Under the pieces are notes generated by a model. The model ran no database searches. It saw only the letters and a program-made list of their open reading frames with translations, and was not told where the DNA came from. A stretch of 64,000 bases of DNA, from positions 21,548,281 to 21,612,280 of the forward strand of contig NC_088861.1 of NCBI RefSeq assembly GCF_963853765.1, in the 5' to 3' direction. The DNA is from Magallana gigas. Lineage: Eukaryota. The translations under genes were made by a program, and so were the position numbers. Positions 9,138 through 36,097 of this stretch are shown piece by piece (positions within the stretch are counted from its first letter, which is position 1; each line of letters begins with the position of its first letter).

Positions 9138-9357
9138 TTGCAAGGTAGGAAGGCATTATTTGTATTGAAAAAAAATATTAGAAACATGTTTCTTAATCAT
9201 AATACTTTGCTATCATTGTTTGATTGCTTTGTTGGCAGTGTCATTAACTATGCTTCTGAGGTATGGGGTTCATTCAAAGCACCTAATATATTGAGAAACT
9301 TCATCTTGATTTTTGTAAACATATCTTGGGAGTTAAAAGGTCAACTTGAATAAGGAC
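9138..9357 (+). pseudogene. 3' fragment of a non-LTR retrotransposon (LINE, CR1/L2/RTE-like) ORF2 tail
   Basis: LLSLFDCFVGSVINYASEVWG matches the conserved post-RT motif L.LYK.LVRP.LEY...VW. A second frame gives IEKLHLDFCKHILGVKRST, matching LEK(V/I)Q..F.K.ILGV. Confidence 0.45.
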
Positions 9358-11275: not shown

Positions 11276-11376
11276 TAGTCTCGTTCAACCAGACGCTCGG
11301 CTGTCTCCGTAAATCTCCGACTCTCTGCTCGTCGGAGTTTTACGGAGACAGCCGAGCGTCTGGTTGAACGAGACTA
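11276..11376. mobile_element. Foldback MITE, copy 3, with a perfect 10-bp target duplication
   Basis: Element TAGTCTCG...CGAGACTA is flanked on both sides by AGTTCACCAG (11266-11275 and 11377-11386). Confidence 0.85.
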
Positions 11377-11401
11377 AGTTCACCAGGTGCCGGGTTAACC
11401 C

Positions 11402-14787: not shown

Positions 14788-16497
14788 ACGCACCCAAATG
14801 GAGCCCAAATGGAAACAAATGGAAACCCAAATGGAATCACAAATGGAAACAAATGGAAATTGAATGGCATAATCGTAGATTTTATTTAATAATTTCAATT
14901 ACATGATGAGTAATCAATAAATATAAATTCTAAAACGACATTTTCTTGTGTTGTTAATGATTCTTTATTGATATATGAATTTATATATAACTATTAATAT
15001 AACTGTTGATATATAATCATATGGAAATATCTGATTCAACCATCATATGTGACATCAAATGTGACAAACCAAATACCACCGAATGTGATAAACCAAATAG
15101 TGACTTGTGAAAAATCATTATAATAATAAAAACACCAATTTATGACTTTTTTCATAAAAGAACTTATTAATATAATTGTTCTTGAGTAAGATTGTTTGAG
15201 GTAACTGAGTCCGGGCCCTGGTAGAGCGTCGTGTTTAACACGATAGGAACAGTTTCTAAATACAGTCTGATATTTCTGTTTGTACAACGATGTAGTTACA
15301 ATGTTAATATATGAGTTATTAATAGTAAAGTGGTACCTATAAAAACTTATTAATGAAATTGTTTTAGAATAAGATTGTTTGAGGTAACTGAGTCCGGGCC
15401 CTGGTAGGGCGTCGTGTTTAACACGATAGGAACAGTTTCTAAATACAGTCTTATTTCTGTTTCTACAACGATGTAGTTACAATGTTAATATATGATTTTA
15501 TTAATACCGAGCGCAGCGAGAGGCGGGCGAAGCCCGCCTCGCGAAGCGAGGATTAATGGTAACACGTATATATAAGAAAATCAGTGAAAAATGAAAGTTG
15601 AATCAGGGGTACTAAGGCCCAAAATAATTTCTTCCAGCCCTGGGCGCCGCCATATTGGCAGCCATTTTGTTTTTAAAAAGTTAGTTCGATCATTGATTGA
15701 CTGGTACTTATTGATGTTTATTGCCCCTAAACTCAATTAAAATGTTCCAGTGTTTCAATGGAAGGTAATTTTAATTAAAAGAAATAAAAGAGGACACCAG
15801 ATAAGTTCCAATAGTGCTTTAATCAAGAAACACGACTAGGTGTATGTATGTCTTATCAAATTATCAGATGGAAAATAAAAACATTAACATCAAGGAACTG
15901 ATCTTTTAGATACTGAATAAAGTATTCAATTTTATTACCGCGGCATTTATATGAATTAAATCGATAAACAATGAAAGAAGAAGTTAAAAAAAGTTCGGAA
16001 TAATAAACGTAACTCTCTTCGGCTATTTCCGAAGACAAAACGTTGTACGTTTTACGTCTGAAAAATGACGTCATAATGTAGACAGAGCACGCGACGTTTA
16101 GTAAACTTTGGCTAATGATTTGAGTAGGCAACCAGGCGAACCCTACTGTGTGCGTTTCATATAAATTTAATTTGTTCTACAAAAATCAAACTGCACAGTG
16201 TGAAATCTGCGCTCGGTCCAACGGTCACACCGTTTATATATTAGTTAAGTGGTACCAAGTGCTGTAAATATTTGATGTAGAATTATAAGAAAAATGTTGT
16301 TCAATGTTTTTTTTTTAAATTTTCAATAAAAAAAACTCATTTATTAAAAATAATGATTGAAATTATTAAATAAAATCTTCAATTATGCCATTCTATTTCC
16401 ATTTGTGATTCCATTTGGGTCCATTTGTGCTCCATTTGGGTCCATTTGGGTCATTTTACGTTCCATTTGGGTCCATTTGGGTAAATCGACGCACCCT
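14788..16497. mobile_element. Family B element copy 2, head-to-head with copy 1, containing an internal duplication and a nested 727-bp insertion
   Basis: Starts aaatggagcccaaatggaaac, shares internal sequence with copy 1 (15040-15500 matches 13560-13870), and ends gggtaaatcgacgcaccc at 16497. It is interrupted at 15509-16235. Confidence 0.55.
15509..16235. mobile_element. Unclassified 727-bp insertion inside family B copy 2, starting with GAA-triloop hairpins
   Basis: Absent from the homologous site in copy 1 (ttattaata|gtttaatggtacc). Begins CCGAGCGCAG followed by hairpins ggcgggc-GAA-gcccgcc and cctcgc-GAA-gcgagg. The inverse CTGCGCTCGG lies near the other end, which also contains a TGACGTCA motif. 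Confidence 0.45.
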
Positions 16498-16575
16498 CAT
16501 TCGTGTAACATGTAGACTGTCAATGCCTGTCTGATATACGATAGAGACAGAGGGCCAGTCTACATGGTCTATGTA

Positions 16576-17035
16576 GGTATCACACCGGTAATCGGCCAAT
16601 CAAAATGAACTTAGTCAATTGTAGTTCCATATATACTTCATAATTATTTTTTTTCTTGACTGTAGTTTTACATTTTCCTTTACTCAGTTTTAAAATTTTT
16701 TGTACCACTGAGTAGGATATTTCATGTATTTTGTTAGGTGATGATTTTTTTTCACAGGAACTACTTCTTTCAGGGCTCATGCAGCAGCTTCCTGGGGAGT
16801 GTGCAGTCTGTTTACATACAAATGGAAAACACGTGGTTTTGAGGGTAGACCTGTTTGGAGCTAGATATTTTGAGAAAATGCAGTATCGCTTGCCCTTTTT
16901 ATTGTGTTAGCTGATGAGATAGGTAACAAATAACATTTCCTCCGAATATTTTGTCATGAAAAATACAAACTGATTTTTAAGAATTTTTTCCCCTCTATAG
17001 TGTTATATAGTGAAAACAATTACCGGTGTGATACC
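16576..17035 (+). mobile_element. Second copy of the GGTATCACACCGGTAAT TIR MITE (460 bp), about 80 bp upstream of the RPL24 leader
   Basis: ggtatcacaccggtaatcgg...caattaccggtgtgatacc. Flanking ATGTA/TGTAA share TGTA. It is the reverse complement of the 51299-51757 copy. Confidence 0.8.
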
Positions 17036-17110
17036 TGTAACATGGTGCAATTTTTCACTTTCGGGAAACCTCGAGTAATTTCGCTACATACGTAAGAATC
17101 GAGCGAGGTA

Positions 17111-17153
17111 TCCCGAAAGCCTACTTTCGGTCTTTCAACTTCCGGTCTCAAAC
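17111..17153 (+). promoter_or_regulatory. RPL24: Putative pyrimidine-rich promoter / 5' leader of the ribosomal protein L24 gene
   Basis: Pyrimidine-rich tract tcccgaaagcctactttcggtctttcaacttccggtctcaaac lies immediately 5' of the ATG. The first exon ends just after the start codon, as is typical of ribosomal protein genes. Confidence 0.4.
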
Positions 17154-17158
17154 ATGAA
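17154..17158 (+). CDS. RPL24: 60S ribosomal protein L24, exon 1 (ATG plus AA, phase 2)
   Basis: ATGAA is followed by the GTGAGT donor at 17159. Joined to exon 2 it reads [20 protein letters not shown]..., matching the RPL24 N-terminus [18 protein letters not shown]. Confidence 0.75.
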
Positions 17159-17292
17159 GTGAGTGAAAATATTGTATACCGACAATAATCTGTAAAATTC
17201 TGATATTTTTTGGGAACATCGCGAAGAATTAAATTGTTAATGTAAGCAATCAATGTATGATTTACATGTTTTAACTTATATTTTTCATGAAG

Positions 17293-17368
17293 GATCGAAC
17301 TGTGCTCTTACAGTGGGTATAAAATATATCCAGGACACGGAAAACGTATCGTAAAAGTTGACGGAAGG
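17293..17368 (+). CDS. RPL24: 60S ribosomal protein L24, exon 2
   Basis: Acceptor AG at 17291-17292. Exon encodes (K)[25 protein letters not shown] and ends before the GTAAGA donor at 17369. Confidence 0.85.
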
Positions 17369-17499
17369 GTAAGAGCTGATTTTGTTTCCAGTTTCAGAAC
17401 AATGTGAAATTTATGGTTATTTTTATTATGTGAAAAATCTCACGCCATTATTGGAGTAAAATGTGTGTCAGCAGGTCCAGTACAATTACTAGATTAGCT

Positions 17500-18540
17500 A
17501 CGTAGCTTAATACATATTCTCTTTTGAGAAGTGGACAGGCATAGCCTACATCCACTTCTCTTCGCAAGCCCTCATATTTTGATTCTGAAAAACGTGTAAA
17601 TGTTGGAACCAAAGACGGTTTACGTTTCGACTCATGTTTCCACTCCACTTTCCCTGAATTTTCGTAACAGACCTACTATTTCTACATTTTAAACATTATT
17701 GCATCCATATATCACAAAAAAATCAACACTAACTCGCTGTCAAATCATTTTCGCAACTTCTACATCCCGGGTTTAAATTGTGTGTATCACATTGTTTATC
17801 TAGGTCAGCGCAGATTGAATGTTTATGTTTCGGATAAAATTGGAAACCTATTTAAGACAATAATGTCGAAAACGTAACTGAATCAACTTAATCTTACAAT
17901 GTATAAACAAATACTGAGCCAAATAATTACAAAGTGGTATGTCTTCCCTTTTTAACCATCTCTTATGGTGACAAAATTTGTCTACATCTGTTTTTAACAA
18001 TAAAATGAACATTGATTAATATAGCATACAAGAAAGATTAAAATAAAGAGTTTTATGTGACAAAGTTACTTATTTTATTGTATGCATTTGTGTTAATTTG
18101 TCTTAAATTGTAAAACCGTTCTATATAGCTCTGTGAATTTTAGAAAAATACCTTTAATCTAAAGTCTACAATCGGAGCACTATTTTCCGTTTTTTCCGAC
18201 TCTAAATTTTCTACTTTTTAAACCACCTATAGCGAATGATCTCATAATTTAAAACCGGAATGTAGAAGTTGAGAAAATGATTTGACAGCGGGTTAGTGGT
18301 GTTTTGTTTGTAATATATGGATGCATTTATGTTTAAAATGTAGAAATAATGGGTCTGTTACGAAAATTCAGGGAAACTGGAGTCGAAACATGGGTCGAAG
18401 TGTAAACCGTCTTTGGTTCTGACATTTACACGTTTTCCAGAATCAAAATATGAGGGCTTGCGAAGAGAAGTGGATGTAGGCTATGCCTGTCCACTTCTCA
18501 AAAGAGAATACTTAATACATAGCTTTGTTTACCTACCTGA
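17500..18540. mobile_element. About 1-kb element with roughly 270-bp terminal inverted repeats, in RPL24 intron 2
   Basis: 17520-17790 is the reverse complement of 18250-18530, for example gagaagtggacaggcatagcctacatccacttctc against its inverse. It has no ORF. Confidence 0.55.
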
Positions 18541-18884
18541 ATTTATTTATAGTCTGTCCCAAGTTATTGCTTCCATCACTTTTTGATGATTTGTAATGAA
18601 AATACACATACCTGTGAAAGAAGTACAGTTGAAATCGATGAAATGGAAAATATTCAAGATATCTTCATTGACAAATTATCCATTTTCACTCATAAAAGTG
18701 TATAGGAATGAAAACAATTTTCTTACGGAGATATATAATGGGAAATGTTTGCATCTTTTCTCTATTCGGAAGTACTAATGGCTGATGCAATGCAAATCCC
18801 CGTAGACTTTCTATTTCGGGATGTGTATTGAAACCTGAAGCGATAGAAGGGGCATTTCAAAACAGAAAATCTAGACATTTTTCT

Positions 18885-19795
18885 GGTGCATCGATTTACC
18901 CAAATGGAACGTAAAATGACCCAAATGAACCCAAATGGAAACAAATGGAAATTGAATGGCATAATTGAAGATTGTATATATAATAATTTCAATTATTATT
19001 TTAAATATATTGAGTTTTTTTAATTGAAAAATTTCTGACCAAATGGAAAAAAGAATTTGATAATGTAGCCTTATCAATTAGTTTCATGATTTAAATACAT
19101 GATTTAGATATTTTTTTTCGAATCTATTTATTGGATTGTTAGCCGTTATAAGTAGTATAACGTTGTCAAGCTCTTGCCATGTTGAGGCCATCCTAATAAA
19201 TATTGAAAGCCAAAAGAATAAATTGAAAAATTAAACATATAAATTATAATTTCCGACCAAAAAAAGATTTTTATGTTTTAAAAATAAAATATGTATTTTC
19301 AAATGATTATAATAGTTACTTAGAATTTCATATGACCTTAAAAAAATTCAGTCCAAACATCGATTTATTTTAGAAATCAAAAAGTACTTCAAAATTTGAT
19401 GCATGGAAAATGAACCACATACTGTACATGTATAAGCAAACAATACTAACTTATATACATCTATATTTAGAAGAAAACTATGGTACTTTATTTTCCAATA
19501 TCAAAAATAAATATTTGAGTTATATTGTTATGATTAAAAAGGTATCTTGAAATGATTAAATATCAATAGTTATATTAACAGTTATATATAAATTCATATA
19601 TCAATAAACAATCATTAACAACACAAGAAAATTGTTGTTTTAGAATATTCATATTTATTGATTCTTCATCATATAATTGAAATTATTACATAAAATCTTC
19701 AATTATGCCATTTAATTTCCATTTGTTTCCAATTGAGTTTCCATTTGGGTTTATTTGGGTCATTTTACGTTCCATTTGGGTAAATCGACGCACCC
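18885..19795. mobile_element. Family B element copy 3 (complete, 911 bp) with 9-bp target duplication, in RPL24 intron 2
   Basis: Termini are ggtgcatcgatttacccaaatggaacg... and ...cgttccatttgggtaaatcgacgcaccc. Flanked by CATTTTTCT on both sides (18876-18884 and 19796-19804). Confidence 0.8.
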
Positions 19796-22537
19796 CATTT
19801 TTCTATTAGTGGATGAACGTAGTTTAAACACAAAGGTATTTATTATTTTCGAAATATCAAGCGAAGAGTGGTGGAAGCAAAAGCTCGGGATAGAGTATAG
19901 CTACTCAATCATACTTTTGTTTTAAAAGGGCATTTGTACAGGATATCCCATAATAGCTGATACCATTAATTCTATGAATAACTTTTGATTAAGTTAATTT
20001 GACAAAAAATTAAATTTAATTGATCTGATACATTCACACATTTTATACATTAAATGTTTTGTAATTCTGTGAGTTAAATGACAAATAAAAATCAGTCCTT
20101 GTACTTCTGTGTATTTTGGAGGCATTAGTGCAACCCTTTGACCCAATTACAACCGTTGTGTAGCGATTCTGTTTAATTTTGTAGACAACTGTAAACAAAT
20201 GGTTTTATAATTATTTTAGCAATAATTTGGCAGTATTATTAACTAATTACAAGTTTCAAACTAATAGTAATGTCAGCATGAAAAGTAATAAACATCAGTT
20301 GTAATTTTCAATGCACAGTATCACCTGTTTTTATAACCCATGAAGATAAGACAGTCGCAAGTTCCTAATCACAAAAGGGTTTAACTGAGCATGTGAGAAC
20401 GTCTTATGAATTTGATGATAATCATTTTATTGCCTTTGAGTTTAATTAATTAACACAATCGTAAACTCTGCATACAGGGCGACTTCAACTTCTCTTTCGG
20501 AGGAAACTCCGGCAAAGTTGCCGATCACAAAGCAAGTCGTCCTCTAGGTTGGTCACTGTATAATAATACTTTAGTCTTTTAATGGATATTGGATAATAAA
20601 AGGATATCTGTCACATGACTATCAATGATAACGACTTACTATCGATTGTCACCGACCTGCTGCCTTCAGCGATGATTTTTCGATATTCGGCGACTATCGT
20701 AACAACACTAGAGGATTACCTGTGCACCTGTTAACCCTTAGCTGCCTCACCTGACAATTGTCGCACCGAAATTTCAGGTCTGCCACTGCTATGCGCGACT
20801 ATGGTCGTTTTTCCGAGAGCGAGTTATCTAAGGTTTCCACAAGCCTCGCTTTGAGCAAAAACACGATGGCTATGATTGGTCAATTGATGTGTTCGGAAGG
20901 TTTCTAGAGTTTTGCAGAGTTTAAAATAAAGGCTATAGAGCAGTAAACTTCCAAAGAATGTTTTGAATTTGTAGCCAAAGTGGCAAAAGTAGAGTGAAGC
21001 CACGAGACACAAATTTTGGAACTTTTTTCACGGGGATAGCAAAGACGAAAATACTGTTGATGGATTTAATCCTGCAGTACATAACTTAGGAGATGTTAAT
21101 TTATTGATTTATGTGTCTTTAATGAACTTTGTGCCAAGAAATGACCGAGAATTTGATGCCGATCTGGAGGTAGGCTAGTCGCGTGTTGATCCACCGCCAT
21201 TGAATATCCCATCCCATTCACCAGAGAGGAAAAATTAAACACTTAAATGGAGGATTATGAACCTTTATCGTGTCTAAATTAAATTTTTAATGATATTATG
21301 TTTATGGAAATTGTTGTTTAATTGATCAACATCTCTACCGAGAGATTGTGCAGTCTGAGAATGTAAACCAGAACAACATAAAAAAAAAAGCATTGATAAA
21401 GTGTTTCATGTATTTCTTTATTTTTCAGTAATTGTTTACCCAATTTTCAAAATTAAACGAATAAAATTGAATCTCACAATGTATGACTTATTGATATACT
21501 AAAGAACTTTTACAGTCATTTGGGTTCTCAAATATGACAATTGAAGAATGGAACAATGAAAGGCATTAATTTTAATTGATTTTTACATTTGAACATACCT
21601 AGATTGATATATACAAGATAAATGAGGAATATGAGCATTGCATTGAAATCTTCAATATTTTCTCTCGCATTTTAAATATATATAAAGTTTGGTAACTGTA
21701 GCAATAAATATATAGTTGCTGTGATATATTATTTTAAACTCTATGGTCAATTACCATTAATTGTGAATAATTAATTCAGCAGTGGCAGCCATCTTTGCGA
21801 AAGTTAAAGCAGCAGCCTAAGAGTTAAGTGACACCTCCGGATATATATTGTTTTCTTTGGTGTTTCAGAGTAAAATCTGGATGTTAAAAGGTCTTTCTTA
21901 TTACTATATAAGGCCTATGCATTACTATATATGCAACTGATATAAGAAAAACCGGAAGTATTAGTAAAAATTAAATTAGACAAAAACATGTCATACTAAG
22001 ATCACGGTAGACAGTACTTTGATGGATTTTGATATATTTAAGCTACATAGCAGCTTTTTGAGGCCATTTGTCTGAATGAATGAGAAAATAAGTTATGTAG
22101 AGCCCTGTCAGTTTTAGAACATATTAAAGAAAATGCTTTGTTGCTGAGATAAATCATTGAAAATATTAGATATTTTGCAAGTTTAAGATTATTTTAAAAA
22201 GTTTTATGTTAAAAAAATGAGATGTATTAGAACTGTCCACCAATTGAGTATTGTTGCCCATTTTTCTCTATTTTATGATGATAGATAGATAGATACTTTA
22301 TTTCTAATACTGGGCCCTCTTGGGCATATAAAGGTAATAAAGAAAATAATGATAAAAAATAAATAAAAAAATACATACACACATACAAGGAAAGGGAGGG
22401 TTTCAAAATGATAGTTTATATTTATGTTGAATAAAAGATGAGTCAAAGTAGGAATCTATTCAATTTTCTATTTGCTCAACAACTAAAAATTCTGTGAGTG
22501 CTAATTCTCATATATAATAGTAACCATCATGTTGTAG

Positions 22538-22785
22538 GTTTTCCAGTTCCTCAATGGAAAATGCGAGGCTTCACACAAAATGAAGAGGAATCCACGCGAG
22601 ATTAATTGGACAGTGCTATACAGAAGAAAGCACAAGAAAGGCAATCTTGAAGAGATTGCTAAAAAGAGAACTCGCAGGACTACCAAGTTTACACGTGCTG
22701 TCACTGGGCTTTCTCTTGCTGAAATTCAGGCAAAGCGAAACCAGAAACCAGAAGTGAGGAAGGCACAGAGAGAACAGGCCATCAG
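22538..22785 (+). CDS. RPL24: 60S ribosomal protein L24, exon 3
   Basis: Acceptor ttgtag at 22536-22537. Encodes [82 protein letters not shown](R), near-identical to the central region of metazoan RPL24. GTTAGT donor at 22786. Confidence 0.9.
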
Positions 22786-23167
22786 GTTAGTTAATTTCAA
22801 GGATTTGATTTTATATACTGGCATGAATAAAAAATTAAAATTATTGGAATGCTGATGGGATTTATCTAAGAAATAAGCAGCAAGTTATAAAGTTCACTGA
22901 GATATGAACTTGGTTGGTCACATGATCAAATCCTAGAATCTTAAAGGGCTTCTCAAAAGATTTGATCATGTACCAACAAAGTTCTTATTCCAGTGTCTGT
23001 GTTGAATAATTTTATAACAAATAATTTTAAAACTAAATTTTTTTAATTTAATTTTATCACTTTTACGTATATTAAGTTGTTTATTCTCTAGCAGAATTTT
23101 ATTGGAAGTTTAAAAAATCAAGGAGACTTCCATTATTGGACACCCGCACAATGCTAGAACCATTTTA

Positions 23168-23662
23168 GGCGAGAGAAATTTAATTTTTAGTTTTACGGAT
23201 TTTGTTGTAAAAAATTTGGGTCGGAGGAGGGGGAAAAAAAAACCAGTGGGCAAACTTTTATTAATCAAAATTACATATTATTTGCTTGAACTTATATGAT
23301 TAAGTTTAATTTGTCCACTATCCACTGTGTACTTGGTATTGGTATTAACCTTACTAAACTTGTTCAGGATAACATTTTCTTTGCTTTTCATAAAAACTTT
23401 TAAGCCAAACCATGCATGGCTGACCTCAATCTTAAATACTCCATGTTATAGAGACGCTTACAATTGATTTGAAAAGCTCTCTTTGTCAACCGTTTTGCAG
23501 ATTTCAAATAAAATAAAGTAATTTTAAAACCAAGATCTGTAAAACTTGAAAATTCCGGAAAAATATCCGAAGATACAATTTTTTTTTCATTTTTTTTTTT
23601 TTACAAAATCGAATAAATTGGGTTGGCGGATCCGTAAAACTAAAAATTAAATTTCTCTCGCC
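23168..23662. mobile_element. Tourist/Harbinger-like MITE (495 bp) with TTA target duplication
   Basis: TIR GGCGAGAGAAATTTAATTTTTAGTTTTACGGAT... has a 34-bp match at the other end. TTA flanks both ends (23165-23167 and 23663-23665). Confidence 0.6.
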
Positions 23663-24046
23663 TTAACAAGGCCTTGGACTTTCAGTAGGACATAACTATC
23701 TGTTTCTTTCGTCAAAACAAGTTAAAAATGATGCTGGCTTCAGGTGAAATATGCACTGATTGAGTAGTCTTAGCTCAAAAGCCAGACAAATCTTGTTGAT
23801 TTCAAAGAGCAATGGCTGAGTGGCCTACAATGAAATAGACAGGCCTATGTCACATTGCAGTTTGACACCAACTACCCAAAGTCCAAGCTTTTGTTAAAAT
23901 GGTTCTAATATCTATTGATAGTAAAATAAAACAGCTTTGTAAATTTTTTAAAAACTTTTCAAATTTGTTAAACTGAATTGATTTGATGTATTCTTACATT
24001 TTATAGATGAAAAGTTTTGTAATTTTGTTATGTAAATGACAAATAA

Positions 24047-24725
24047 ATGAGTCTCTATGGAACACCATGGCTGCCTTATAGCATTAGACTATAGGTACAT
24101 TATGTCAAATTACCATTACATTATGTCAAAGTCCATTACGTGGTGTGAATATATCTTTACATTTGGTCAAATCGTTATTACGTGATGTCAAAAGCACGTT
24201 AGGTGAAGTAAACATGTCTTTACATTATGTCAACTTTTCATGTTGTGATGTAAAATCATCCTTACGTTATGCCAACATTGTACAACCAAAGGTCAATACA
24301 TCATGACATTATTTCGACACTGTATTACATGGGGCGAATGTATCCTTACATTATGTCAACATTTTATTACATGCTTTCAATATATCCTTACATTATATCA
24401 ACACCGCAGTACGTATCGCGATTCTATCCTTACATTATGTCAACATTTTATTACATGATATCAATGCGTTTTTACATTTTATCAACACCTTAATACATGG
24501 TGTTAACTCATCCTTTCATTATGTCAACACTTTATCACTTTATGTCAAAAGTACATTACTTGATACGAAAATGTCTTGACTTTTTGTCTAAACTTTATTA
24601 CCTGATGTAAATAAGTCTTTACATTAGGCAAATTCTCTATTCCGTGATGTATACGCTCTATTACTTTAAGTCGAAACATCATTCCGTTATACAAACACGA
24701 AATCCTTGGTCTTTGTATATTTGTC
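24047..24725 (+). repeat. Left arm of a large inverted repeat (about 680-bp arms, 1.6-kb spacer) containing an about 41-bp minisatellite
   Basis: Reverse complement of 26338..27003. Internal repeats of tccttacattatgtcaacattttattacatg. ORFs 24269..24493 and 26544..26780 are identical translations of the two arms. Confidence 0.8.
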
Positions 24726-26337
24726 ATGTTTTAAATACAAAATTTACTATATAGAAACGGTACGCCGATTTACCCAAATGGACCCAGAAAAACCCCAACA
24801 AAATGGACCCAGAAAAACCCCAACAGTAGATACTAGTAAGAAGCAGTGATTTAATCATACAAGAATGAAAATATATATAGGCCTATATATAGGTCTTCTG
24901 AAAGCTGTAAAAGACTTAGTTGCTGACAATTTAATTTCTCGAGAGTGAATGAACATTTACTTAAAATCCAAGTTTTCTCGTGCTCATCGGCCCTTGAATA
25001 TTTAAAATGAAATGGATATAAAATCTAAAAATAACCCCTTCATTGGGGTTTTTTTTGGGGGGGGGGGGGTTTAAAATTTTATTTTTGATTTATACTTTTT
25101 TTACTTCAATAATATTCAAATTACGTTCGTTACTACACACTCAGTCATTTAGCAGTCAGGGTTCTTTATCGTTCCAAAGCCTGTATGTCGTGGCACAGAC
25201 ACCCAGTGCATATTTAATTTTCTAAAATTTAGTCTCAAAGTATTTTGTAGTTAAAATAAAGTATTTAGTAGTTAAAAGTAAACGTTGCTATTGCTATCTT
25301 AAATTAAGGATACTGACCCTAACTACACATGTAGGTATGGCCGTTCTGCTACAAAATTATTATGCTATGAAAATGATTTTTTTCTTATTGCTGCAGAGGG
25401 GGTGGGAATGGTGTTTGTGGAGGGGGTACGCTACGTTCCTCTGAATAAATTTTCTCCTTTTCATCCAAGAAGGCACTTGATAACTTATATGAAATAAAGT
25501 CTACAAATAAATTACAAGAGATCTTTAACCCCTTTAAAGACCTTCTCCATCTTGATATAGATGTTTTTATGAAATGTTTGTTTTAGGTAATTGTTCAGAC
25601 AGAGGGTATAAATCAGAAATATGTCATAATAAAAACGCACACAAATAAGAGGGGAACTGTATTCGCCGATTTCAGAATTATTATAAAGAAAGGCAAACAC
25701 TTTTGGTAGAATCGGTACCGTCTTCAGGGTTTGCCCCATACATGTAACTTACTAAATTTTAATTAAATGAAATAATTCGACAGCATGAGTGTTGGTTTTT
25801 GTAAACAGTTAAATGTATAATCATGTTACATATATTTTCGTTGTAAGTATAGAATAGGCGTGAAAATAGGTTGAGAAGGAAATTTACGCTCATTCCGTTC
25901 TGTTCCGTTGAATACCAATATCCACAGGGGTAATAATATATTGCGGAACGTAACGGAACCAGAATCTTACAAATAAGTCAAGTACTGCTGACATTGTAAT
26001 TTTAAAGATGGTATGCTTTGGAATGCGTTTGGTTTGTTTTAAATCTCTAACTAATAGAGAATATTTTTTGCTAGCTTAAACTAGTTAGTAAGTTCTGCCG
26101 TGAAAATACTGTAATATGTTAATATTAGAGTAGTAAGTAATATAATTATGTATATTTTTCTTTAAACAACGAATTTAAACAATAAAATTAAAGATCAATC
26201 TTATTTTGAAATGAAATGAATAAAAACAAAATAAATCATTATTTTTAAATTTCTATTTTCCCATTGGATGACCCTTTACTGGTTCCGTTCTGTTCCACAA
26301 AGTTTCAATAACCCCTGGATACATTTGGGTAAGCTTA

Positions 26338-27003
26338 CCGTTTCCTTGTATATAGAAAGGCCGATGTATCCGTGTTCGCGTAACGAAATGATGTTTCACC
26401 TTAAAGTAATGGAGCATGTACATCATGAAATAGAGAACTGACCTACAGCAAAGACTTATTTACATCACGTTATTAAGTTTAGACATAACGTCATAAACTT
26501 ATGATATCAAGTTATAAAGGTTTGACATAATAAAACGATATATTTACACCATGTAATAAAGTGTTGATAAAATGTAAAAATGCATTGATGTCATGTAATA
26601 AAATGTTGACATAATGTAAGGATAGAATCGCGATACGTACTGCGGTGTTGATATAATGTAAGGATATATTGAAAGCATGTAATAAAATGTTGACATAATG
26701 TAAGGATACATTCGCCCCATGTAATACAGTGTCGAAATAATGTCATGATGTATTGACCTTTGGTTGTACAATGTTGGCATAATGTAAGGATGATTTTACA
26801 TCACAACATGAAAAGTTGACATAATGTAAAGACATGTTTACTTCACCTAACGTGCTTTTGACATCACGTAATAACGATTTGACCTAGCGTAAAGATATAT
26901 TCACACCACGTAATGGACTTTGACATAATGTAATGGTAATTTGACATAATGTACCTATAGTCTAATGCTATAAGGCAGCCATGGCGTTCCATAAGTCTCT
27001 TTA
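26338..27003 (-). repeat. Right arm of the large inverted repeat
   Basis: For example, 26941-27000 is the reverse complement of 24050-24110. Confidence 0.8.
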
Positions 27004-28060
27004 CATCAGCGTACAGTGGAATAATTTTTATTTGTGGGGGTCAATGTTGAAGGGTAGCCAAAATTTTCTTGGTTCATGGGGGTCAAATTTCGTTGGTAGC
27101 TTCTCTTTTGGAGGAAATTCCAGCATAAAAAAAATGATTATAAAGCAAGTATTTCAACCAAGTCGCTGCCTAAGTTGGTCCCTGATCATAGTACGTTAAT
27201 ATCAAACACTTGAAACACTGAAAAACTTCAATATTAGTAACTTAGATCTATTTCTTATTGACTTGAAATCAAAAACACAAAAACAACATAACAGCAGTGT
27301 TTGAAAAAACCAACTGCCGGACAGCCTGAGGCACATTACTTTTGGCAGGGGCTAAAAAATTTGTTTGTACGAATGCCTGACTGGACGTGTATATTTTTTT
27401 AGGGCCAAGTGTATATAAAATCGGGATCAGGGTTTCAAAAATTTTAACTGATTCTTGTCATACTATTGCTTTCCTTGTATGGTCATTTAACACCAGTCAA
27501 GACAAGTGTTAAATTTATGTAGACTATGCTTGACACGTGAGCATGGCAAGGTAGAGTTCCCATGCTATGAAATAATATAGGTAAACTTGGCGAGATTCTT
27601 TGAGACTGAAAAATTTTGACACGCGTCTTCTCTGAATCCCAACTTCTGTCGGTTGTTATGATAGAAATACGCTGAATTAAATCAACTGCCTGCTTCAACT
27701 TTTTATTTTGAACATCGTTTGATTTCCCTATCATCGTAGAATGTTAGTTTCAACTTTTTACTTTGAACATCGTTTGATTTCCCTATCGGCATTGAATGTT
27801 AGTTTCCTAACGTTTAATGGTTTTAATCCCACAATATATGAACTTGTTGTTTTTTTTAAATTCATTTCCATATGCATTCACACCTCATGCCTAAGAGTTC
27901 CAGTCAAGGTCAAATATACTCTCAGAAGTCCGGAAGAAACTTTAGTCAAATTTTGTTAGTCTCAAAGAATCTCGCTGGGAACAATAAAAAACCTAACGAG
28001 TTTATGACAGAAAGAAATTAAAACAGATATTTTAATGAAAAGAAATAAACAAATGTCAAC

Positions 28061-28067
<7 letters not shown>

Positions 28068-28097
<30 letters not shown>

Positions 28098-28140
28098 AAT
28101 TGGTCTTCGTCCGTCGTCGTGCGTTCGTGCGTCGTGCGTT
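28068..28140 (-). repeat. Inverted-orientation terminal module (perfect palindrome plus (CGTC/CGTG)n) bordering the 168-bp satellite
   Basis: aggtcacctgagtcactcaggtgacct, then gtcttcgtccgtcgtcgtgcgttcgtgcgtcgtgcg, the reverse complement of a GACG-like repeat. A related motif actcaggtgaccgttaaggccaattggcc recurs at 30205 on the far side of the array. Confidence 0.55.
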
Positions 28141-28199
28141 AACAATTTTACATTTTTAACTTCTTCTTGAAAACTACCAGGCCAATCGTTACCATTTTT

Positions 28200-30060
28200 G
28201 GTGTGAAGCATCTCTATGGTAAGAAGAATCTAAATTGTGAAATTCATGGCTCTACCACCCCTGGGGTGCCACGGGCGGGGCCAAATATGCAAAAAAAGCC
28301 AAATTTTCAAAAATCTTCTTCTCTACTCCCACGCATGTGAGGAAAAAACTGGTTGCATGGTTATGTTGTCCATGAAGCCCTCTACCAAAATTGTGAAATT
28401 TATGGCCCCTGGGTCAGGGGTTCTGGCTCTAGGGTGGGGCCAATATGGCCATATAGTAAAACTGTATTTAACCTTAGAAAATCTTCTTCTCTACTACCAT
28501 ATATTTTTAAAAAACTTAATGCATGATTATGATGTCCATGAAGCCCTCTACCAAAATTGTGAAATTTATGACCCCTGGGTCAGGGGTTCAGGATCTAGGG
28601 TGGGGCCAATGTGGCCAAATAGTAAAAATGTATTAAATCTTAGAAAATCTTCTTCTCTACTATCATACATATTTGTCAAAAACTAAATGCATGATAATGA
28701 TGTCCATGAAGCCCTCAACCTAAATTGTGAAATTCATGACCCCTTGGTCAGGGGTTCAGGCTCTAGGGTGGGGCCAATATGGCCATATAGTACAAATGTA
28801 TTAAATCTTAGAAAATCTTCTTCTCTACTCCCATATATATTTGTCAAAAACTAAATGCATGATCATGATGTCCATGAGGCCCTCTATCAAAATTGTGAAA
28901 TTAATGACCCCTGGGTCAGGGGTTCAGGCTCTAGGGTGGGGCCAATATGGCCATATAGTAAAAATGTATTAAATCTTAGAAAATCTTCTTCTCTACTACC
29001 ATATATATTTGTTAATAACTAAATGCATGATTATGATGTCCATGAAGCCCTCTACCAAAATTGTGAAATTCATGACCCCTGGGTCAGGGGTTCAGGCTCT
29101 AGGGTGGGGCCAATATAGACAAATAGTAAAAATGTATTAAATCTTAGAAAATCTTCTTCTCTACTACAATATATTTTTGTTAAAAACTAAATGCATGATT
29201 ATGATGTCCATGAAGCCCTCTACCAAAATTGTGAAATTCATGACCTCTGGGTCGGGGGTTCAGGCTCTAGGGTGGGGCAAATATGGACAAATAGTAAAAA
29301 TGTATTATAACTTAGAAAATCTTCTTCTCTACTACCATATATATTTGTCAAAAACTAAATGCATTGCTATGATGTCCATGAGGCCTTCTACCAAAATTGT
29401 GAAATTCATGACCCCTTTGTTAGGTGTTCAGGCTTTAGGGTGGGGCCAATATGGCCATATAGTAAAACTTTTTTAAATCTTAAAAAATCTTCTTCTCTAC
29501 TCCCACACATGTGAGCAAAAATCTGAATACATGGTTATGATGTTCATGAGGGCCTCTACTAAAATTGTGAAATTCATGACCCCTTTATTAGGTGTTCAGG
29601 CTCTAGGGTGGGGCCAATATGGCCATATAGTAAAAATGTTTTAAATCTTAAAAAATCTTCTTCTCTACTCCCACACATGTGGGCAAAAAACTGAATACAT
29701 GGTTATAATATCCACAATCTCCTTTACCTAAATTGTGAAATTCATGGCCCCTGGGTCAGGGGTTCAGGACATGAAGGGGGGGGGGGGGCGCAATATAGTG
29801 TTAATGCATATAATGTTTAAAAATTTTCTTCTCTATTCTCACACATCTGTATAAAAAAACTGACTTATAATTATGTTTACCAGGAAGTCCTCTACTGAAA
29901 TTTTAATTTTCATGTTCCCCTCAAGGATGGGTTTTGACTCTAGGACAGGGCCAAAATGGATGTATAGATGTTAATGCATATAACGCTAAAAAATTATTTT
30001 CTTTACTCCCACACATCTGAAAGGAAAACTGAATTCATGATTTTGTAGACCAGATCTTTT
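28200..30060. repeat. Satellite array with 168-bp unit, about 11 copies, degenerating at the right end
   Basis: gatgtccatgaagccctctaccaaaattgtgaaatt recurs at 28531, 28699, 28868, 29035, 29203, 29371 and 29539. ORF-track ORFs here are translations of the repeat. Confidence 0.85.
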
Positions 30061-30414
30061 AGTTTTTCACCAAAATAATAGGTTTCACAGTTCTTTTTGA
30101 AATGAGGTCGTCATTACAAATTTATTATTTTTTTACTCCAGTATGAAACCTAATTAATCAGATGCATATATGAGACTCCATGACAAGTTTTAGTATGGGA
30201 TATATGCTACTCAGGTGACCGTTAAGGCCAATTGGCCTCTTGTTTCTTTGGGCTGGTTGATTTTAACAGGGCTGACAAATTATACTAGCTGTCAGCCCTG
30301 AGAGTCTAGCTAGTTTTTTGAAGAGTTTAAAACACTGATAACAGTTGTAGAAATATTTGATGTTGACTTAGACTTGTGAAATTCACTTATTGGTTTCTGT
30401 TCTTTAATTTTTAG

Positions 30415-30466
30415 AGCTGCAAAAGAGAAACAGAAAGCTAAAGATGCTCTAAAGAAACAACAAAAG
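30415..30466 (+). CDS. RPL24: 60S ribosomal protein L24, exon 4
   Basis: Acceptor tttag at 30413-30414. Encodes (R)AAKEKQKAKDALKKQQK, the lysine/alanine-rich tail, and ends at the GTATGA donor. Confidence 0.8.
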
Positions 30467-30496
30467 GTATGAATAATATCATAAATATCACTGAAT

Positions 30497-30560
30497 TATC
30501 CCCTCGGGCAACTTGTTGCGAGGGGGATATAGCATCGCTGCTGCGCGCGCGCGTGTGTGT
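30497..30560 (-). repeat. Inverted-orientation hairpin plus microsatellite module, 30 bp downstream of RPL24 exon 4
   Basis: ttatccccctcg-ggcaacttgttg-cgagggggataa, then (gc)n(gt)n. The stem and loop resemble those at 60195 and 62650. Confidence 0.5.
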
Positions 30561-31900
30561 ATGTCCATTGTCAGCTCTTAAGCAAAATTCCAAGAAAACC
30601 CTCCATTGAATATTCATCAGACTTTGTTCACTTCTTTGGCATGGTAAAAGGACAAACTCTTTTGATTTCCAAGTCAATTGAATCAATATTTTTTGAATTA
30701 TCGTAAAAAGGTAAAGTTAAAACATGAATTTTTTATCGGACTTGACAATAGACATTTCCGGTAATTTTATGTACGACTTTCAGTAAATCGCTACCGTGTG
30801 CAGTTCAAATCAACAACTTTATATTTTTGGGATTTTAATCTAGTAAAGGTAAAAAAAAAAAAGCAAACATTTTGTAGTATTGGAGGGTTAGAAGATTGCC
30901 CATAGGTAAAAGTTGAAGCGGGCAAGAAATTAAAGTCATCCGATTGACATCGAAACAAGCAGTCAACTTTTGGACAAATTTTCCCGTATTACTTACAATA
31001 GAACTAGTGCAAAATTTGGAGGATACTTTGGCAGATATCGCACATTTATCACGCAAAGATTGTTTCATATCAATAATAACTGCATATCTACTACTATGGG
31101 TTGACATACCACAAGCAACTAGAATTGTCCATCAGAGCTAGGGCTGGGACGATACTGAACTTAGCCGATTTGGTACATATCATGATGCATGAGATGCGAT
31201 ACGATACATATCACGATACATTGCAACTAAATGGAAACATGAATAAGGGTTAAAAATTTATTCAATCTTTCAATGTATTACCGCATATCCAAAGTTATTT
31301 TGATATATGAGCGTTGCACAATTTTAAAATTACTTTAGTCTCATATACACTACTTTTTCATAAACAAGTAATCCAAAAGTTGTCCACACTCCAGATTTAG
31401 CTTCCTAACAGTTTTGACAACTTTACGAGGTTTTCTGCCATCTTTGTACTTTCATATTAGGCGGACTAAAAATAGCTGATATATGAAGCTTGGATATTTT
31501 TGGAAAATAAAAAAAAGTTCGCTTAGATTACTTTCGGTTTATCCCTCCGCGTGTTTCAAATAGTACAAGTCAAAATGAGAGCACACGACAGTTTTATCGA
31601 TAAAAATAGGATAAATTGTAATTAACTAAGCAAAACAATTACTTAATGAATAATCTCAATCAATCATTTTGCATTTCCCTACAGCAGAAAACGTTTGTTT
31701 ACGTTTTAAAGCGGCGTAGTAATACAGTGTAAGACAGTAAAATCTCACACTGCTGTCTCACACTGGACAAACCAACTTAAGCTGATTTTATCATACCTAT
31801 TGTTGTTCAGGTGAGCGATGGGCCTCTTCTTTAAGCTGAGTTTTAGAGCAGGTGCCATCTGATGATTATATCTTAGTTATTACTGGTCCTAACTTCACCC

Positions 31901-32373
31901 ATCTTCCAAAGTAAAGGGTTTCTGATCCGCTCTGCTGTACATAAACCCTTGACCGAATAGGCAGAGTTTGACTTGATTAGAAACCTCCCACGTTGGTTGG
32001 TGTCATACAAGTTTGCATGATCCAAGAAGAAACGATGTTTCAATAATGATGTTAATTGTGAATTGATCAATGTTGAACCGTTGTCAAATAAATTAGAGAC
32101 AAATAGTAAGTATTTGACATACTGATATCGGTTTTTAGTCTGAGTGAATCCATATTTTCTACGAATTTGATTTTGTTCATGGGAGCAGCCATATTGCTAT
32201 ACTGTTTCTGTTTATAAAGCATTCTCTGATTGGTCAGAACAAGAGGTCACAAAAGTTTAAAAATTAGTACTCTCACTAGATGGCGTAATCGTTAACCTGC
32301 ATATGTGTTGTCTTTTTCGGTCAAGGGTTTATGTAGAGCGAAGCGGATCAGAAACCCTTGACTTGGAAAGATG
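31901..32373. mobile_element. MITE (473 bp) with about 50-bp TIRs and a perfect 9-bp target duplication AACTTCACC, in RPL24 intron 4
   Basis: Left end catcttccaaagtaaagggtttctgatccgc, right end gcggatcagaaacccttgacttggaaagatg. AACTTCACC lies at 31892-31900 and 32374-32382. Confidence 0.8.
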
Positions 32374-33067
32374 AACTTCACCAAACTTGCATAGATGATG
32401 TGTATTATGGCTGTGGTGCTGTTACATAGCACTGCACACCAACTCTGCCAAACTTCCCCCCATGCATCAACAATTTTCTGGGGAAAACACTGAAATGGCA
32501 ACAGCGACATTTTAAGTCAAGTAAAAAAGAAGGGCTAAAAACTCTAACGTCGTGACATTTTTGCACCAGTTCATAATGCGTAGGAATAAAAGGTATTCTT
32601 ATATTTGAGAGCATGTTGATTTAAAGCATTTTTGTGTCTTCTATCGTTAAATGAATTTACTGTTAATGTACTTCAGTCGTTGGATAAAAGAAAGAAACAA
32701 ATTGTCTAATATTAGAGTTTGACATTGACATCATAAGAATTATTTCATGCAGTCCTTGATTTTCCTTAAAACAATGGTGGTTTCAACCAATTGATAAAAG
32801 ATGCATCTAGATTTCAATTTTGTCTGTTTTGGCCACTAAGGTTCGACCAATCAATAAACGAGGCATGTTGATATCGGTCCTGTTAGTTTCTATAGAGCTA
32901 TAAATTAACTAGTTACTTTCTATAGAGCTCTATATAAACTAAAGTTTCCGTAAGAAATGGAGGGAATCATACTCAATACATTTAAATATCGTCGTATCAA
33001 ACCTGTAACTGTTAAGGCCCTTCATGCCTTTGATTATTTCATTATATTTAAGTTACTTTAATCTTAA

Positions 33068-33200
33068 GGAGCATATACCTATAGCTCAGTGGAGCACATT
33101 GTTTAATGGTCATAGGCGTGAAGCTACTCAGGTCAGTAACCGAAAGAGCGCTAGTTTAAACCCTGCTGTGGTCACACTGAGACAGGGCAAATTAGCCTTG
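33068..33200 (+). other. Possible tRNA-derived SINE fragment in RPL24 intron 4
   Basis: tagctcagtggagcac is A-box-like. agtttaaaccc is a weak B-box-like match about 70 nt downstream. Confidence 0.25.
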
Positions 33201-33467
33201 TGGGAGTTAAGTCTCATTTGGATGGTTCTAGCTGAACCAGAGAATTGTTTTTAGAAAGAATAGCACAGTCCATACAAATCTATTACCTCAATTTTATTTG
33301 GTGGCTGCTACCATGTAGATTATATGGTGGCTGCCAGATAAATCATGTAGCTGCAGTTGCATTTGCCAGATAAGGTATAATTTTTATGTGGTCAGCGAGC
33401 TTCCGTAGAAAAATAGATTTCTTCCTTTTGTACTATATTTCTTGAAAAATTATTTTTATTGTTCTAG

Positions 33468-33557
33468 ACTCAGGCCAGCAGAACTTCTCAACCCAAGGTT
33501 AAACCAACAATGAAAGGCGGAGCAGCAACCAAGCCTAGAGTGGGAGGAAAACGTTGA
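33468..33557 (+). CDS. RPL24: 60S ribosomal protein L24, exon 5 with stop codon
   Basis: Acceptor ttctag at 33466-33467. Encodes TQASRTSQPKVKPTMKGGAATKPRVGGKR* and ends PRVGGKR like human RPL24. Total predicted protein is about 156 aa. Confidence 0.8.
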   Translation, partial: TQASRTSQPKVKPTMKGGAATKPRVGGKR

Positions 33558-33573
33558 TTCTGGAAAAGGAAAA

Positions 33574-33579
33574 AATAAA
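33574..33579 (+). terminator. RPL24: Candidate polyadenylation signal AATAAA for the RPL24 transcript
   Basis: AATAAA lies about 17 nt downstream of the TGA stop. Confidence 0.4.
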
Positions 33580-36097
33580 AAATACACTACTGGATATTTT
33601 TGTTTGTTTGTTATAGATTGATATTATTATGAAGATTATTCAGGTTTGGACTAATCGGCCAAATGGGTTATGGTTGCCTGTATTTGAAATGAAAGTGGGC
33701 TATATAGGGAAATAAAGTAAGCCAATAGATGTAGAATTGGCAGGAATCTGGGCAGACAAGAAGAGTTATAAAATTTTCCAAAGGGCTTTGGTAGGTCTTA
33801 GTTCTGTCCATATGAGACATCCGGCACATTCATCCTTCACCCACAATATTGCCTTTTCGATATTTGTCATCGTTGTAGACCCGTGTAACAATCTATTAAG
33901 TAGGTGCTTGCACGACATACAACCCCTTGGTGATCAACGTTTTCATTAACCCATATAAAGAAATGTTTTTTATTTTTTCTTGGAATTTTTTTCTTGAATT
34001 ATTTTGATGTAAAAAAAAAATATTTCTCAGTCTCTCTTTATGCTTGTTTGTTAGCGGTTAATCTAAGTTCATTTTGCATATCCTTTTGTAATTTAAAAAA
34101 TTCGATGTAAATTTTTTATCAATGCAATGTTTCGGATATAGCAATGAAGAGTAATATCTTGAAACATGAAAACTTGAATCATATTATACAAAATTTTATT
34201 AGACCTTTAAATTGTAAAATGCTAACATTGAAAATTGTGCCCGATTTCTTAGTAAAACTTTTTTGATTAAAAAAAAACAACCGATTCCTTGAGACAAAAT
34301 AAATTGACTTAATCAATAAGAGTTTGACAATCTCTAACTGCAGGTCTGTAGCTCTTAGTCTGAAAAAGAATTGGATGACCTAAGACCCAGATCGTCCATC
34401 AAAATTTCTTGAATATTGCCATTTCTTTCGTACGCGGACGCATGCCGGCCAAATACTCACCGAAACTAAATGGTTTGTATTTCAAGTTTTAACTGCATTT
34501 AAAGGTAATATTGGAATTCGGATAATTTTGAAAATGATTAATTAAATAAAAAATGGGTAAAATACCGGCATCGGTCTTCCCCATGTGCGGATCTACATGG
34601 AGAAGAGAAGGGTTCCAGACCCCACCCCAACCCTGCAAAATTTCTTTCAATTACATTTACATTATAAAATTACTAAAATATGCCTCATACATCCCGTAGC
34701 AAACTCAAATAACCGTCAGACACTCAACCCCCATCCCGGAAAATTTTTCTGATCCGCGCATGCTCCCCCTCCAAAATTATTCTTCAAATACCCCCCGTAA
34801 AATTTCCAGGATCTCCGCATATATTGGCGCTTGCGTTCGATAAAAAATGCGAGTAAAATGTTTGGTCTTTTTACCTTCATACCGGGCATACCCACTGCGT
34901 GAATCGTCGTCCATATTCTGTCTATATTGAGTCAATTATGATGATTAAATAAGTTTCTCAAAATAAAATGCACGTACAAAAACAACATGCGGCGAATCAA
35001 ACTTTAGACATCTTTAAAAGATCTTTATTTGCTTAATATATACATGTAGTATAGTATTTTATTTCTTTTACTCAGTGTTTATATCGATACATCTAATATT
35101 GTACCATGTAAGTATCAATTTTTGTATTACGTCACAAGTAAGATGCAGCTACGACGGAAGACCTAATCGTTGCTTGCAACGAGGTCGTCTCTAGTTTCAC
35201 TGTACTCGGCTTAGTTTGAATAATCTGGGTCTAGGGACAGGTTTCACCACAGTTAAAATGCCTTTCATAGCCTATACCTCGAAACTTGACTCTCAGATAC
35301 TGTTAGTAAATAGAAAATTGTAAACAATAAACACAGGAAAAATGCACTAAAACAAAGAAAGAGCATAATTTATTTTTCACAATAAATATACCTTAATATT
35401 TCTAGCAGCGATAATAATCTCTGTTTATAGACTGAAAATGTTGAGCATCTTAACAAAACACGTTGCATTAATCAACCATAATGATTAGGCTCAAAATTAT
35501 TCCTGTTTCCTGTCGCCCGACCGACCCTATCTTTTACCATCCGATCCTAAAAGTTTTTTTGTGATCATGATGTTGATCGGTAACTTCGCCAGAATTTCCT
35601 CAGAAAAAGAAGTAAAGGTGCTCAGTCTTCTGAGTTCACAATCGTGTAAATTAACCTCATGTAGCGTTTTAACTTTCTATTTTCTCAACGTTTTTCCGAG
35701 CATGTCATTTCATTTTCAAATCATTATTTCTTTCGCTTTTCAAAGAATAAGCCTGCATTGAGCTCACAATTTTAATAAAGGTAGTAATCCAAGGAATACA
35801 TTTATAAACACAGCAATTACTTACATCCAATTCATTCAAAACTTGTGCAATTCGACTTTGAATTGCTATCCTACTACTCTGCAAGATAATACCAATCGCA
35901 CTGAACTTTTAAGTCAATTTCCCTTTATACAATCAAGTGCATAATTTACTCCTAATAATAAAATCAACTCCTCTCTTTAAAGGTGCATGATCATGATTTT
36001 GGTCAAATTTTATTTTCCTGTTTTTATTATTCTCAATGCTTTCAGAATGCATTTCTAATATTTAAATGAAATTTGGGTGCCAGTCGTTGAGTTTTAA

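Follow-up and report, generated by a model that had tools for sequence, protein, structure and literature searches.

Repeats make up 43% of the Crassostrea gigas genome, and its Helitron-type elements, which have been suggested to be probably inactive, are not depleted in gene-dense regions (Peñaloza et al., PMC7992393). Non-autonomous Helentrons of the Cg_HINE type have been described as spreading satellite-like repeats through the same genome, gene introns included, by insertion at T-rich sites that leaves no target-site duplication (TSD) (Vojvoda Zeljko et al. 2020, PMC7492417); they have relatives in the pearl elements of C. virginica and the DINE-1 elements of Drosophila. When C. gigas is set beside C. 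angulata, 10,565 of 15,475 conserved ortholog pairs turn out to have intronic indels of more than 50 bp and 6,431 have them within the upstream 2 kb, and such large indels are the main source of divergence between the two (PMC10546077). Here we follow what this traffic has made of one essential gene, RPL24, which encodes ribosomal protein eL24 and lies in a 64,000-nucleotide stretch of the Magallana (Crassostrea) gigas genome (assembly GCF_963853765.1, contig NC_088861.1, positions 21,548,281 to 21,612,280; hereafter ‘the window’, with positions counted from its first base). A preliminary description, made from the letters of the window, had singled out the gene for the number of repeats in its introns and close to its promoter.

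In our judgement the locus is very probably the product of a neutral or nearly neutral build-up of non-autonomous transposons, both in the introns and upstream of a very compact promoter. Introns 2 to 4 have been enlarged by repeated insertion of MITEs (miniature inverted-repeat transposable elements), a Mutator-like element with long terminal inverted repeats (TIRs), a foldback-like element and a satellite-carrying Helentron, all of which would be transcribed within the pre-mRNA and then removed by normal splicing. The functional promoter would be very compact, made up of the final ~100 bp together with leader and intron 1, so that insertions at about -90 and deep within introns would be effectively neutral. 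The size of RPL24 would then reflect the genome-wide flux of oyster transposons and not a property of RPL24 itself. Both the gene model and the kinds of elements at the locus are already known or in public annotation, and the gene behaves as a typical oyster gene with an unremarkable load; the initial opinion that such a load is notable in a ribosomal protein gene gives way before the multi-kilobase RPL24 introns of other bivalves, described below, and the intronic indels of most gigas/angulata ortholog pairs.

The window comes from an oyster of the Crassostrea gigas/angulata complex and holds the only eL24 (RPL24) gene annotated there. Its five coding exons, from 17154-17158 to 33468-33557 (stop included), are separated by four introns of 134, 5169, 7629 and 3001 bp, GT-AG in every case, and join into a coding sequence of 471 nt for 156 amino acids. 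Residues 1-64 of the product match Pfam Ribosomal_L24e (PF01246) at 106.8 bits (E 6.7e-31), where the curated cut-off is 27, residues 1-156 align with the eL24 chains 9eho_W and 7oya_W1 of solved 60S/80S ribosomes (1e-66 to 1e-63), and an exact-sequence look-up returns identity with RefSeq XP_034331477.1 (C. gigas, 60S ribosomal protein L24) and XP_052710034.1 (C. angulata). With an intact open reading frame (ORF), a product identical to RefSeq and an mRNA that is spliced and polyadenylated, the gene is therefore cytoplasmic eL24, and neither the RSL24D1 paralog nor a pseudogene. Spliced RPL24 is present at 100% identity in three Logan RNA contigs from separate sequencing runs: L002, which spans all four junctions, ends in poly(A) about 15 nt past AATAAA and alone reaches the junction of exons 1 and 2 (17158/17293); L012, which covers exons 2-5 and shares with L002 the junction 17368/22538; and L011, which covers exons 3-5 and shares with both the junctions 22785/30415 and 30466/33468. 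The protein, its length, the five exons, the four junctions and the introns of 5.2, 7.6 and 3.0 kb had all been read correctly beforehand.

The same contigs bear upon whether a second, compact or intronless copy of RPL24, an eventuality that the preliminary description had raised, carries most of the expression and leaves this locus under relaxed constraint. Intronless RPL24 is indeed found in each of the three, every time joined to unrelated sequence (L002:1-490, L011:373-1170, and L012:1-631 and 1128-1157, one of these with an EF-hand ORF), and UniRef has four C. gigas entries with the RPL24 protein sequence. The joins, however, fall at different points of RPL24 (~17149, ~17296 and 33579/33590), that of L002, which is chimeric in the leader region, having 14 of 15 bases in common with the end of exon 1; joins at three positions, together with the poly(A) of L002, are the pattern of chimeras and not of one retrocopy, and the contigs are probably chimeric assemblies or library chimeras of a very abundant mRNA. 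The exact protein is moreover recorded at one genomic place in the C. angulata assembly, and the copy in the window has an intact coding sequence, the same as in C. angulata, and a core promoter that is invariant across genera. On the evidence of these RNA contigs and of the protein records, a second copy that carries the expression finds no support and seems to us exceedingly unlikely.

Nine repeat types were identified in the introns of this gene, in agreement with the ‘at least eight’ first reported, among repeats visible inside the window, to which detection was limited (Table 1). Such elements occupy 43% of intron 2, 80% of intron 3 and 18% of intron 4, or 55% of intron bases overall, and all of them lie at least 149 bp from the nearest splice site, save an unconfirmed hairpin module 29 bp after exon 4. 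The ‘family B’ element, the long-TIR element, the 3-kb inverted-repeat structure and the MITE with a 9-bp duplication, all named in the preliminary description, are real and were correctly placed.

Table 1. Parts of the RPL24 gene and the mobile or repeated elements in and beside it (window positions; L001 is the C. angulata ortholog).
Feature	Position	Strand	Particulars
460-bp MITE	16576..17035		17-bp TIR GGTATCACACCGGTAAT, 4-bp TSD TGTA
Invariant 19-nt core	17128..17146	+	CGGTCTTTCAACTTCCGGT; -26 to -8 of ATG
Exon 1, coding part (ATGAA)	17154..17158	+	Joined ORF and spliced RNA contig
Intron 1, 134 nt	17159-17292	+	After ATGAA; 134-136 nt across five oyster loci
Exon 2	17293..17368	+	Joined ORF and spliced RNA contigs
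Long-TIR element, ~1 kb	17517..18512		275-bp arms 91% complementary, 9-11-bp TSD CTTAATACATA
‘Family B’ element, 910 bp	18885..19794		TIRs of CCCAAATGGA subrepeats, 9-bp TSD CATTTTTCT; common to C. angulata
312-bp dispersed repeat	20010..20321		Other copies 36743-37040 and, as a fragment, 23968-24047
Exon 3	22538..22785	+	Joined ORF and spliced RNA contigs
Tourist/PIF-like MITE, ~500 bp	23164..23666		37-bp TIRs (GGCGAGAG...) 97%, TTA flanks; present in L001
Foldback-like element, 2.9 kb	24056..26993		509-bp arms 95% complementary, 6-bp TSD AGTCTC, no ORF; present in L001
386-bp MITE-like element	27590..27975		31-bp TIRs
Putative non-autonomous Helentron, 2179 bp	28066..30244	+	Ends 171 bp before exon 4
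Exon 4, 52 nt	30415..30466	+	Joined ORF and spliced RNA contigs
Short hairpin and GC/GT microsatellite	30495..30560	+	TATCCCCTCG / CGAGGGGGATA; 29 bp past exon 4 donor
474-bp MITE	31900..32373		58-bp TIRs, 9-bp TSD AACTTCACC; L001 copy 100% identical
Exon 5	33468..33594	+	Stop at 33557, AATAAA 33574-33579, poly(A) site ~33594

The element that compares most closely with a described system is that at 28066-30244, which by its organisation appears to be a non-autonomous Helentron of the Cg_HINE type with the ‘168-bp satellite’ of the preliminary description as its core; the array itself was rightly recognised, and what does not hold is its standing as a free satellite, for it is the internal array of a mobile element. 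The full published Cg_HINE architecture can be followed from end to end: a 5' subterminal inverted repeat (subTIR) GGTCACCTGAG at 28067-28077 and the complementary inverted repeat CTCAGGTGACC at 28081-28091, a 5' palindrome with a 13-bp stem (-22.5 kcal/mol, z -6.9), a GTCK-type microsatellite tcgtccgtcgtcgtgcgttcgtgcgtcgtgcgt in the left flank at ~28105-28140, a core array of 8.7 copies of 168 bp, inside the 140-180 bp of such monomers, with 89% matches (28310-29768), and a 3' subTIR CTCAGGTGACC at 30210-30220 followed by the palindrome GGCCAATTGGCC at 30227-30238. Its monomers have the motifs AAAATCTTCTTCTC and AAATTGTGAAATTCATGACCCC in common with Cg170-type (CL1) monomers, and the assignment to Cg_HINE is one of architecture and shared motifs. 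In C. angulata the empty site reads caactttttt/ctttggg, and the insertion in the window falls between the fifth and sixth T with no TSD. Among named subfamilies, the 168-170-bp monomer would make CL4 / Cg_HINE_4 / Helitron-N2e_CGi the best guess, which is unconfirmed. Downstream of exon 4, the hairpin module looks like the 5' portion of an element of Helentron type, a likeness that is likewise unconfirmed; a matching 3' end, sought as a test for a second Helentron, was not found. The module is where the preliminary description had put it, within a base of the distance given, and the correction concerns its strength, for the hairpin is weak: the stem at 30495-30530 has only 10-11 bp, and the 94 nt around it show no more folding than shuffled sequence does (z -0.34).

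TIRs, a TSD, small size and the lack of any ORF of at least 90 aa coincide at 16576-17035, 23164-23666 and 31900-32373, which are MITEs, and apart from the 460-bp MITE each is single copy within the window. The element at 17517-18512 appears Mutator-like in structure, as judged from TIR and TSD alone, on account of TIRs of 275 bp and of a duplication that the empty site shows to be 11 bp. The arms of the element at 24056-26993 are made of 21-, 42- and 84-bp subrepeats, and long subrepeat arms of this sort are like those of foldback (FB) elements. Drosophila FB elements have a 9-bp TSD; because the TSD here is 6 bp and not 9 bp, we term the element foldback-like only. Taken together, the locus elements, with TIRs, TSDs of 3, 4, 6 or 9-11 bp and no ORFs, are like the MITEs of introns and promoters and other cut-and-paste elements, and like known MITEs some of them are polymorphic for presence or absence. 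The RPL24 introns contain no transposase-like or other convincing ORF: the ORFs of at least 90 aa either lie within the tandem array (149 aa and 99 aa, both in the 168-bp repeats) or have no match to anything tested. Since no intron ORF resembles a transposase, we regard the intron elements as non-autonomous, and the superfamily labels follow TSD length and TIR structure only.

How recently these elements arrived can be judged from the orthologous C. angulata locus (L001, GCA_025612915.2), the only comparison assembly of the gigas/angulata complex. The two sequences are 99.5-99.8% identical and the RPL24 coding sequence is the same in both, and yet the gene spans 16,404 bp in the window vs 13,228 bp in C. 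angulata. Exact C. angulata empty sites exist for three elements, the 460-bp MITE, the long-TIR element and the Helentron, with a single TGTA at the site of the first and a single CTTAATACATA at that of the second, and the other intronic elements are common to C. angulata at 99-100% identity. A second copy of the 460-bp MITE (51299-51757, reverse orientation, 95.4% identical) is also shared. Given the clean empty sites, the three insertions either postdate the separation of gigas and angulata or still segregate, and no element occurs in the other oyster genera, so that the proposal to date the insertions by ortholog comparison has borne fruit. Two more insertions downstream are private to the window and one is private to L001, where a 1.5-kb insertion (L001:7449-8990, 10-bp TSD CCATATTGGC) occupies a site equivalent to window ~15650-15659; presence and absence therefore run in both directions. 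The first of the downstream pair (39855-49147, minus strand) is an intact 9.3-kb Ty3/gypsy long terminal repeat (LTR) retrotransposon, with 1087-bp LTRs that are 100% identical, TG...CA ends, the TSD ATTC, a clean empty site in C. angulata, a gag-like ORF of 429 aa (PNMA, zinc knuckle) and a pol ORF of 1468 aa (protease, reverse transcriptase, RNase H, integrase); an active element seems to have inserted here very recently. The second (52298-54061) is a 1.76-kb insertion with inverted ends AGACCGGGG...CCCGGTCT that adjoins TTAA, has a few extra bases at its right junction and is not in C. angulata. A Helentron missing from a genome 99.5-99.8% identical, and Ty3/gypsy LTRs that are 100% identical, together point to ongoing or very recent transposition in this lineage, and the mobility of the Helentron would be more recent than has been suggested for oyster Helitron-type elements (PMC7992393).

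It might be objected that the window gained nothing and that the C. angulata reference lost it, by deletion or by assembly collapse; repeats are often collapsed in assemblies, and a single assembly serves for comparison. We hold this to be very unlikely. The elements are bounded by their own termini, and TGTA, CTTAATACATA and, for the LTR element, ATTC each occur as a single copy where the element is missing; the Helentron has one T on either side and no duplication, and random loss would not give such exact boundaries. Precise excision of cut-and-paste elements is formally possible and equally implies recent mobility.

That insertions of this kind could be tolerated so close to the start of an essential gene would follow from the compactness of its promoter. 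Animal ribosomal protein promoters are compact, with a terminal oligopyrimidine (TOP) start and ETS/GABP-type sites, the TOP mRNA opening with a C that is followed by 4-15 pyrimidines. RPL24 is like them, by motif only, in having, no more than 30 nt from the ATG, the pyrimidine-rich CTTTC and the ETS-like CTTCCGG (reverse complement ACCGGAAGT), both inside a 19-mer that has the same sequence and the same position in C. gigas, C. angulata, C. virginica, Saccostrea and Ostrea and a related counterpart, CTTTCTCTTCCGGT, in Mytilus. In RPL24 a very short leader is followed by ATGAA and then by intron 1; the conserved upstream block, invariant in four oyster genera and still recognisable in Mytilus, begins about 30 nt before the ATG, and beyond ~-30 there is no conservation across the four genera. 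Being conserved and resembling animal ribosomal protein promoters, the 19-nt block is a candidate core promoter and 5' leader. The 460-bp MITE does exist and does end at 17035, as first described, and only the distance to the leader (‘about 80 bp’) needs adjustment, the end being upstream of the ATG by 118 bp and of the 19-nt core by ~90 bp. Farther out, beyond ~-650, the gigas/angulata lineage is already in ‘family B’ repeats, related copies of the intronic element lying at ~13100-16500. Several whole or partial elements with CCCAAATGGA-type subrepeats fill the RPL24 upstream region from 13099 to 16501, and nearly all sequence beyond ~-650 is for that reason taken as transposon-derived.

A promoter so close to a new MITE invites the opposite reading, in which the transposon load is functional: the MITE would alter transcription, and double-stranded RNA (dsRNA) made by the long inverted repeats (509-bp and 275-bp arms) within an abundant pre-mRNA would affect splicing, editing or small RNAs. 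The 460-bp MITE splits the sole non-repeat sequence upstream of the core promoter and is not in the C. angulata allele; the 509-nt arms of the foldback-like element, at 95% complementarity, would pair in RNA; and exon 4, a mere 52 nt, has the Helentron end 171 bp upstream and the hairpin 29 bp downstream. The only hint of an effect is a UniProt isoform of 124 aa (A0A8W8JDV5), which is exactly what skipping of exon 4 yields. Yet all three RNA contigs have canonical junctions, no element interrupts the conserved core promoter, C. angulata too has the foldback-like element and the hairpin, which have therefore been long tolerated, and C. virginica, without the elements, also has an alternative exon-4 isoform. 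We consider a functional load improbable, and somewhat more doubtful still the specific proposal that the MITE, the long-TIR element and the Helentron are segregating alleles of an essential, dosage-sensitive gene which measurably change RPL24 output through transcription, exon-4 skipping or dsRNA; were that true, they would form a natural allelic series adding to the high genetic load of oysters and to their growth variation. A milder proposition, and one more likely than that of altered output, is that satellite-carrying Helentrons and a Ty3/gypsy element with identical LTRs are still mobile in the lineage, which would go against what has been published on the probable inactivity of Helitron-type elements in oysters. 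Variation of another kind occurs at the intron 2 acceptor, where position -3 (22535) gives TAG in the window and CAG in 306 Logan genomic contigs, apparently a common polymorphism at a tolerated splice-site position.

Several points weigh against neutral accumulation as we have framed it. About 45% of intron sequence has no assigned class, given that only repeats visible within the window are detectable. Neutrality is something we infer for alleles with and without the MITE, and the compactness of the promoter is drawn from motif and conservation around a putative start site. The exon skipped in the annotated isoform is the one with the closest flanking repeats, so some splicing cost from the repeats is possible. 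Finally, the 99.5-99.8% identity between the window and L001 is above the published species level (~2% mismatch divergence), for which reason the differences may have arisen between species or within one.

Wider comparison sets the recent insertions in a longer history of RPL24 introns. Orthologous loci were taken from C. virginica (L003, GCA_053477285.1), Saccostrea echinata (L004) and Ostrea edulis (L005), and none of the elements of the window was found at any of them. The coding structure is conserved, with five exons of which the first ends after ATGAA, and the introns are anything but constant: introns 1/2/3/4 measure 134/5169/7629/3001 in the window, 134/4174/5448/3001 in C. angulata, 135/1779/190/676 in Saccostrea and 134/5266/3363/1162 in Ostrea, and introns 1/2/3 of C. 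virginica measure 136/297/1302, its intron 4 not being recoverable. In a blastn search of the gene against C. virginica, Saccostrea and Ostrea, only exons, leader and intron 1 align. Because the large introns of Ostrea share no sequence with those of the window, they represent an independent expansion. Across the bivalves compared, for which no scallop or Mya RPL24 locus record was found, the 16.4 kb of the window is the largest span, followed by 11.5 kb in Dreissena, 10.4 kb in Ostrea edulis and 7.6-8.9 kb in three assemblies of Mytilus.

Large introns in a ribosomal protein gene raise one further suspicion, namely that they are kept for functional non-coding RNAs (small nucleolar RNAs (snoRNAs) or microRNAs (miRNAs)) or for a nested gene. 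Ribosomal protein genes in other animals often host snoRNAs, and a scan of the introns for those of box C/D or H/ACA type had been proposed. It came back empty: Rfam has no match across the window when the gathering threshold is applied, and none over 16000-34200 with the limit eased to E<=1, and the orthologs L003-L005 give no snoRNA and only weak sub-threshold miRNA-like hairpin matches. These plant- or insect-miRNA-like matches, in the flanks and introns of Ostrea and C. virginica, are treated as transposon hairpins. Intron 1 is the sole intron block conserved between oyster genera and no convincing ORF lies in the introns, so that retention of the introns for such cargo is hardly to be credited, although lineage-specific RNAs or RNAs of uncatalogued families may be present.

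Read as neutral accumulation, the locus is a worked example of an oyster gene enlarged by non-autonomous DNA transposons, with little meaning beyond annotation. It also conveys the pace of change, for over ~33 kb two genomes that are very close differ by the presence or absence of six large segments, and its reach, in that an assembled genome with an insertion ~90 bp from the 19-nt core has this essential ribosomal protein gene with both coding sequence and core promoter intact. The three presence/absence sites could be convenient polymerase chain reaction (PCR) markers for gigas/angulata stocks, and a dated Helentron insertion verified by its empty site is useful for asking if satellite-spreading elements are still active.

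The neighbourhood of the gene differs among oysters. In C. virginica, Saccostrea and Ostrea a 1600-aa leucine-rich repeat (LRR)/fibronectin gene stands head-to-head with RPL24 at ~0.4-0.8 kb, and no trace of it was found in positions 1-17000 of the window; either the intergenic region has been greatly expanded or synteny has been broken in the gigas/angulata lineage. The downstream flanks gave repeat-like matches only. C. virginica was dropped as the compact outgroup when no exon 5 appeared within 10 kb downstream, and Saccostrea was used in its place as a complete compact ortholog. In the C. virginica assembly GCA_053477285.1 (L003/L010), exons 1-4 are recognisable next to the LRR/fibronectin neighbour, the annotation is of a 133-aa ‘eL24-like’ protein, and the start of a major vault protein gene lies 6.6 kb downstream; for the complete C. 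virginica eL24 of 156 aa no genomic place is on record, and the locus without exon 5 may reflect rearrangement, a partial copy or a fault of the assembly.

Further repeats lie elsewhere in the window. At 11518-13054 an array of 10.3 copies of a 131-bp unit (89% matches; two 66-bp half-units with palindromic GGGGTTCAAAATAT/ATATTTTGAACCCC), unlike C. angulata in its length, is probably the core of another tandem-repeat-carrying element. Another element of Helentron type may lie at 59612-60136, where ACAG/GACAGACG microsatellites come before a 140-bp tandem repeat (3.6 copies, 82% matches), and a 172-aa ORF at 38687-39205, with a weak sub-threshold match to tyrosine recombinase (Phage_integrase, E 0.0018), may be a Crypton or DIRS-like remnant.

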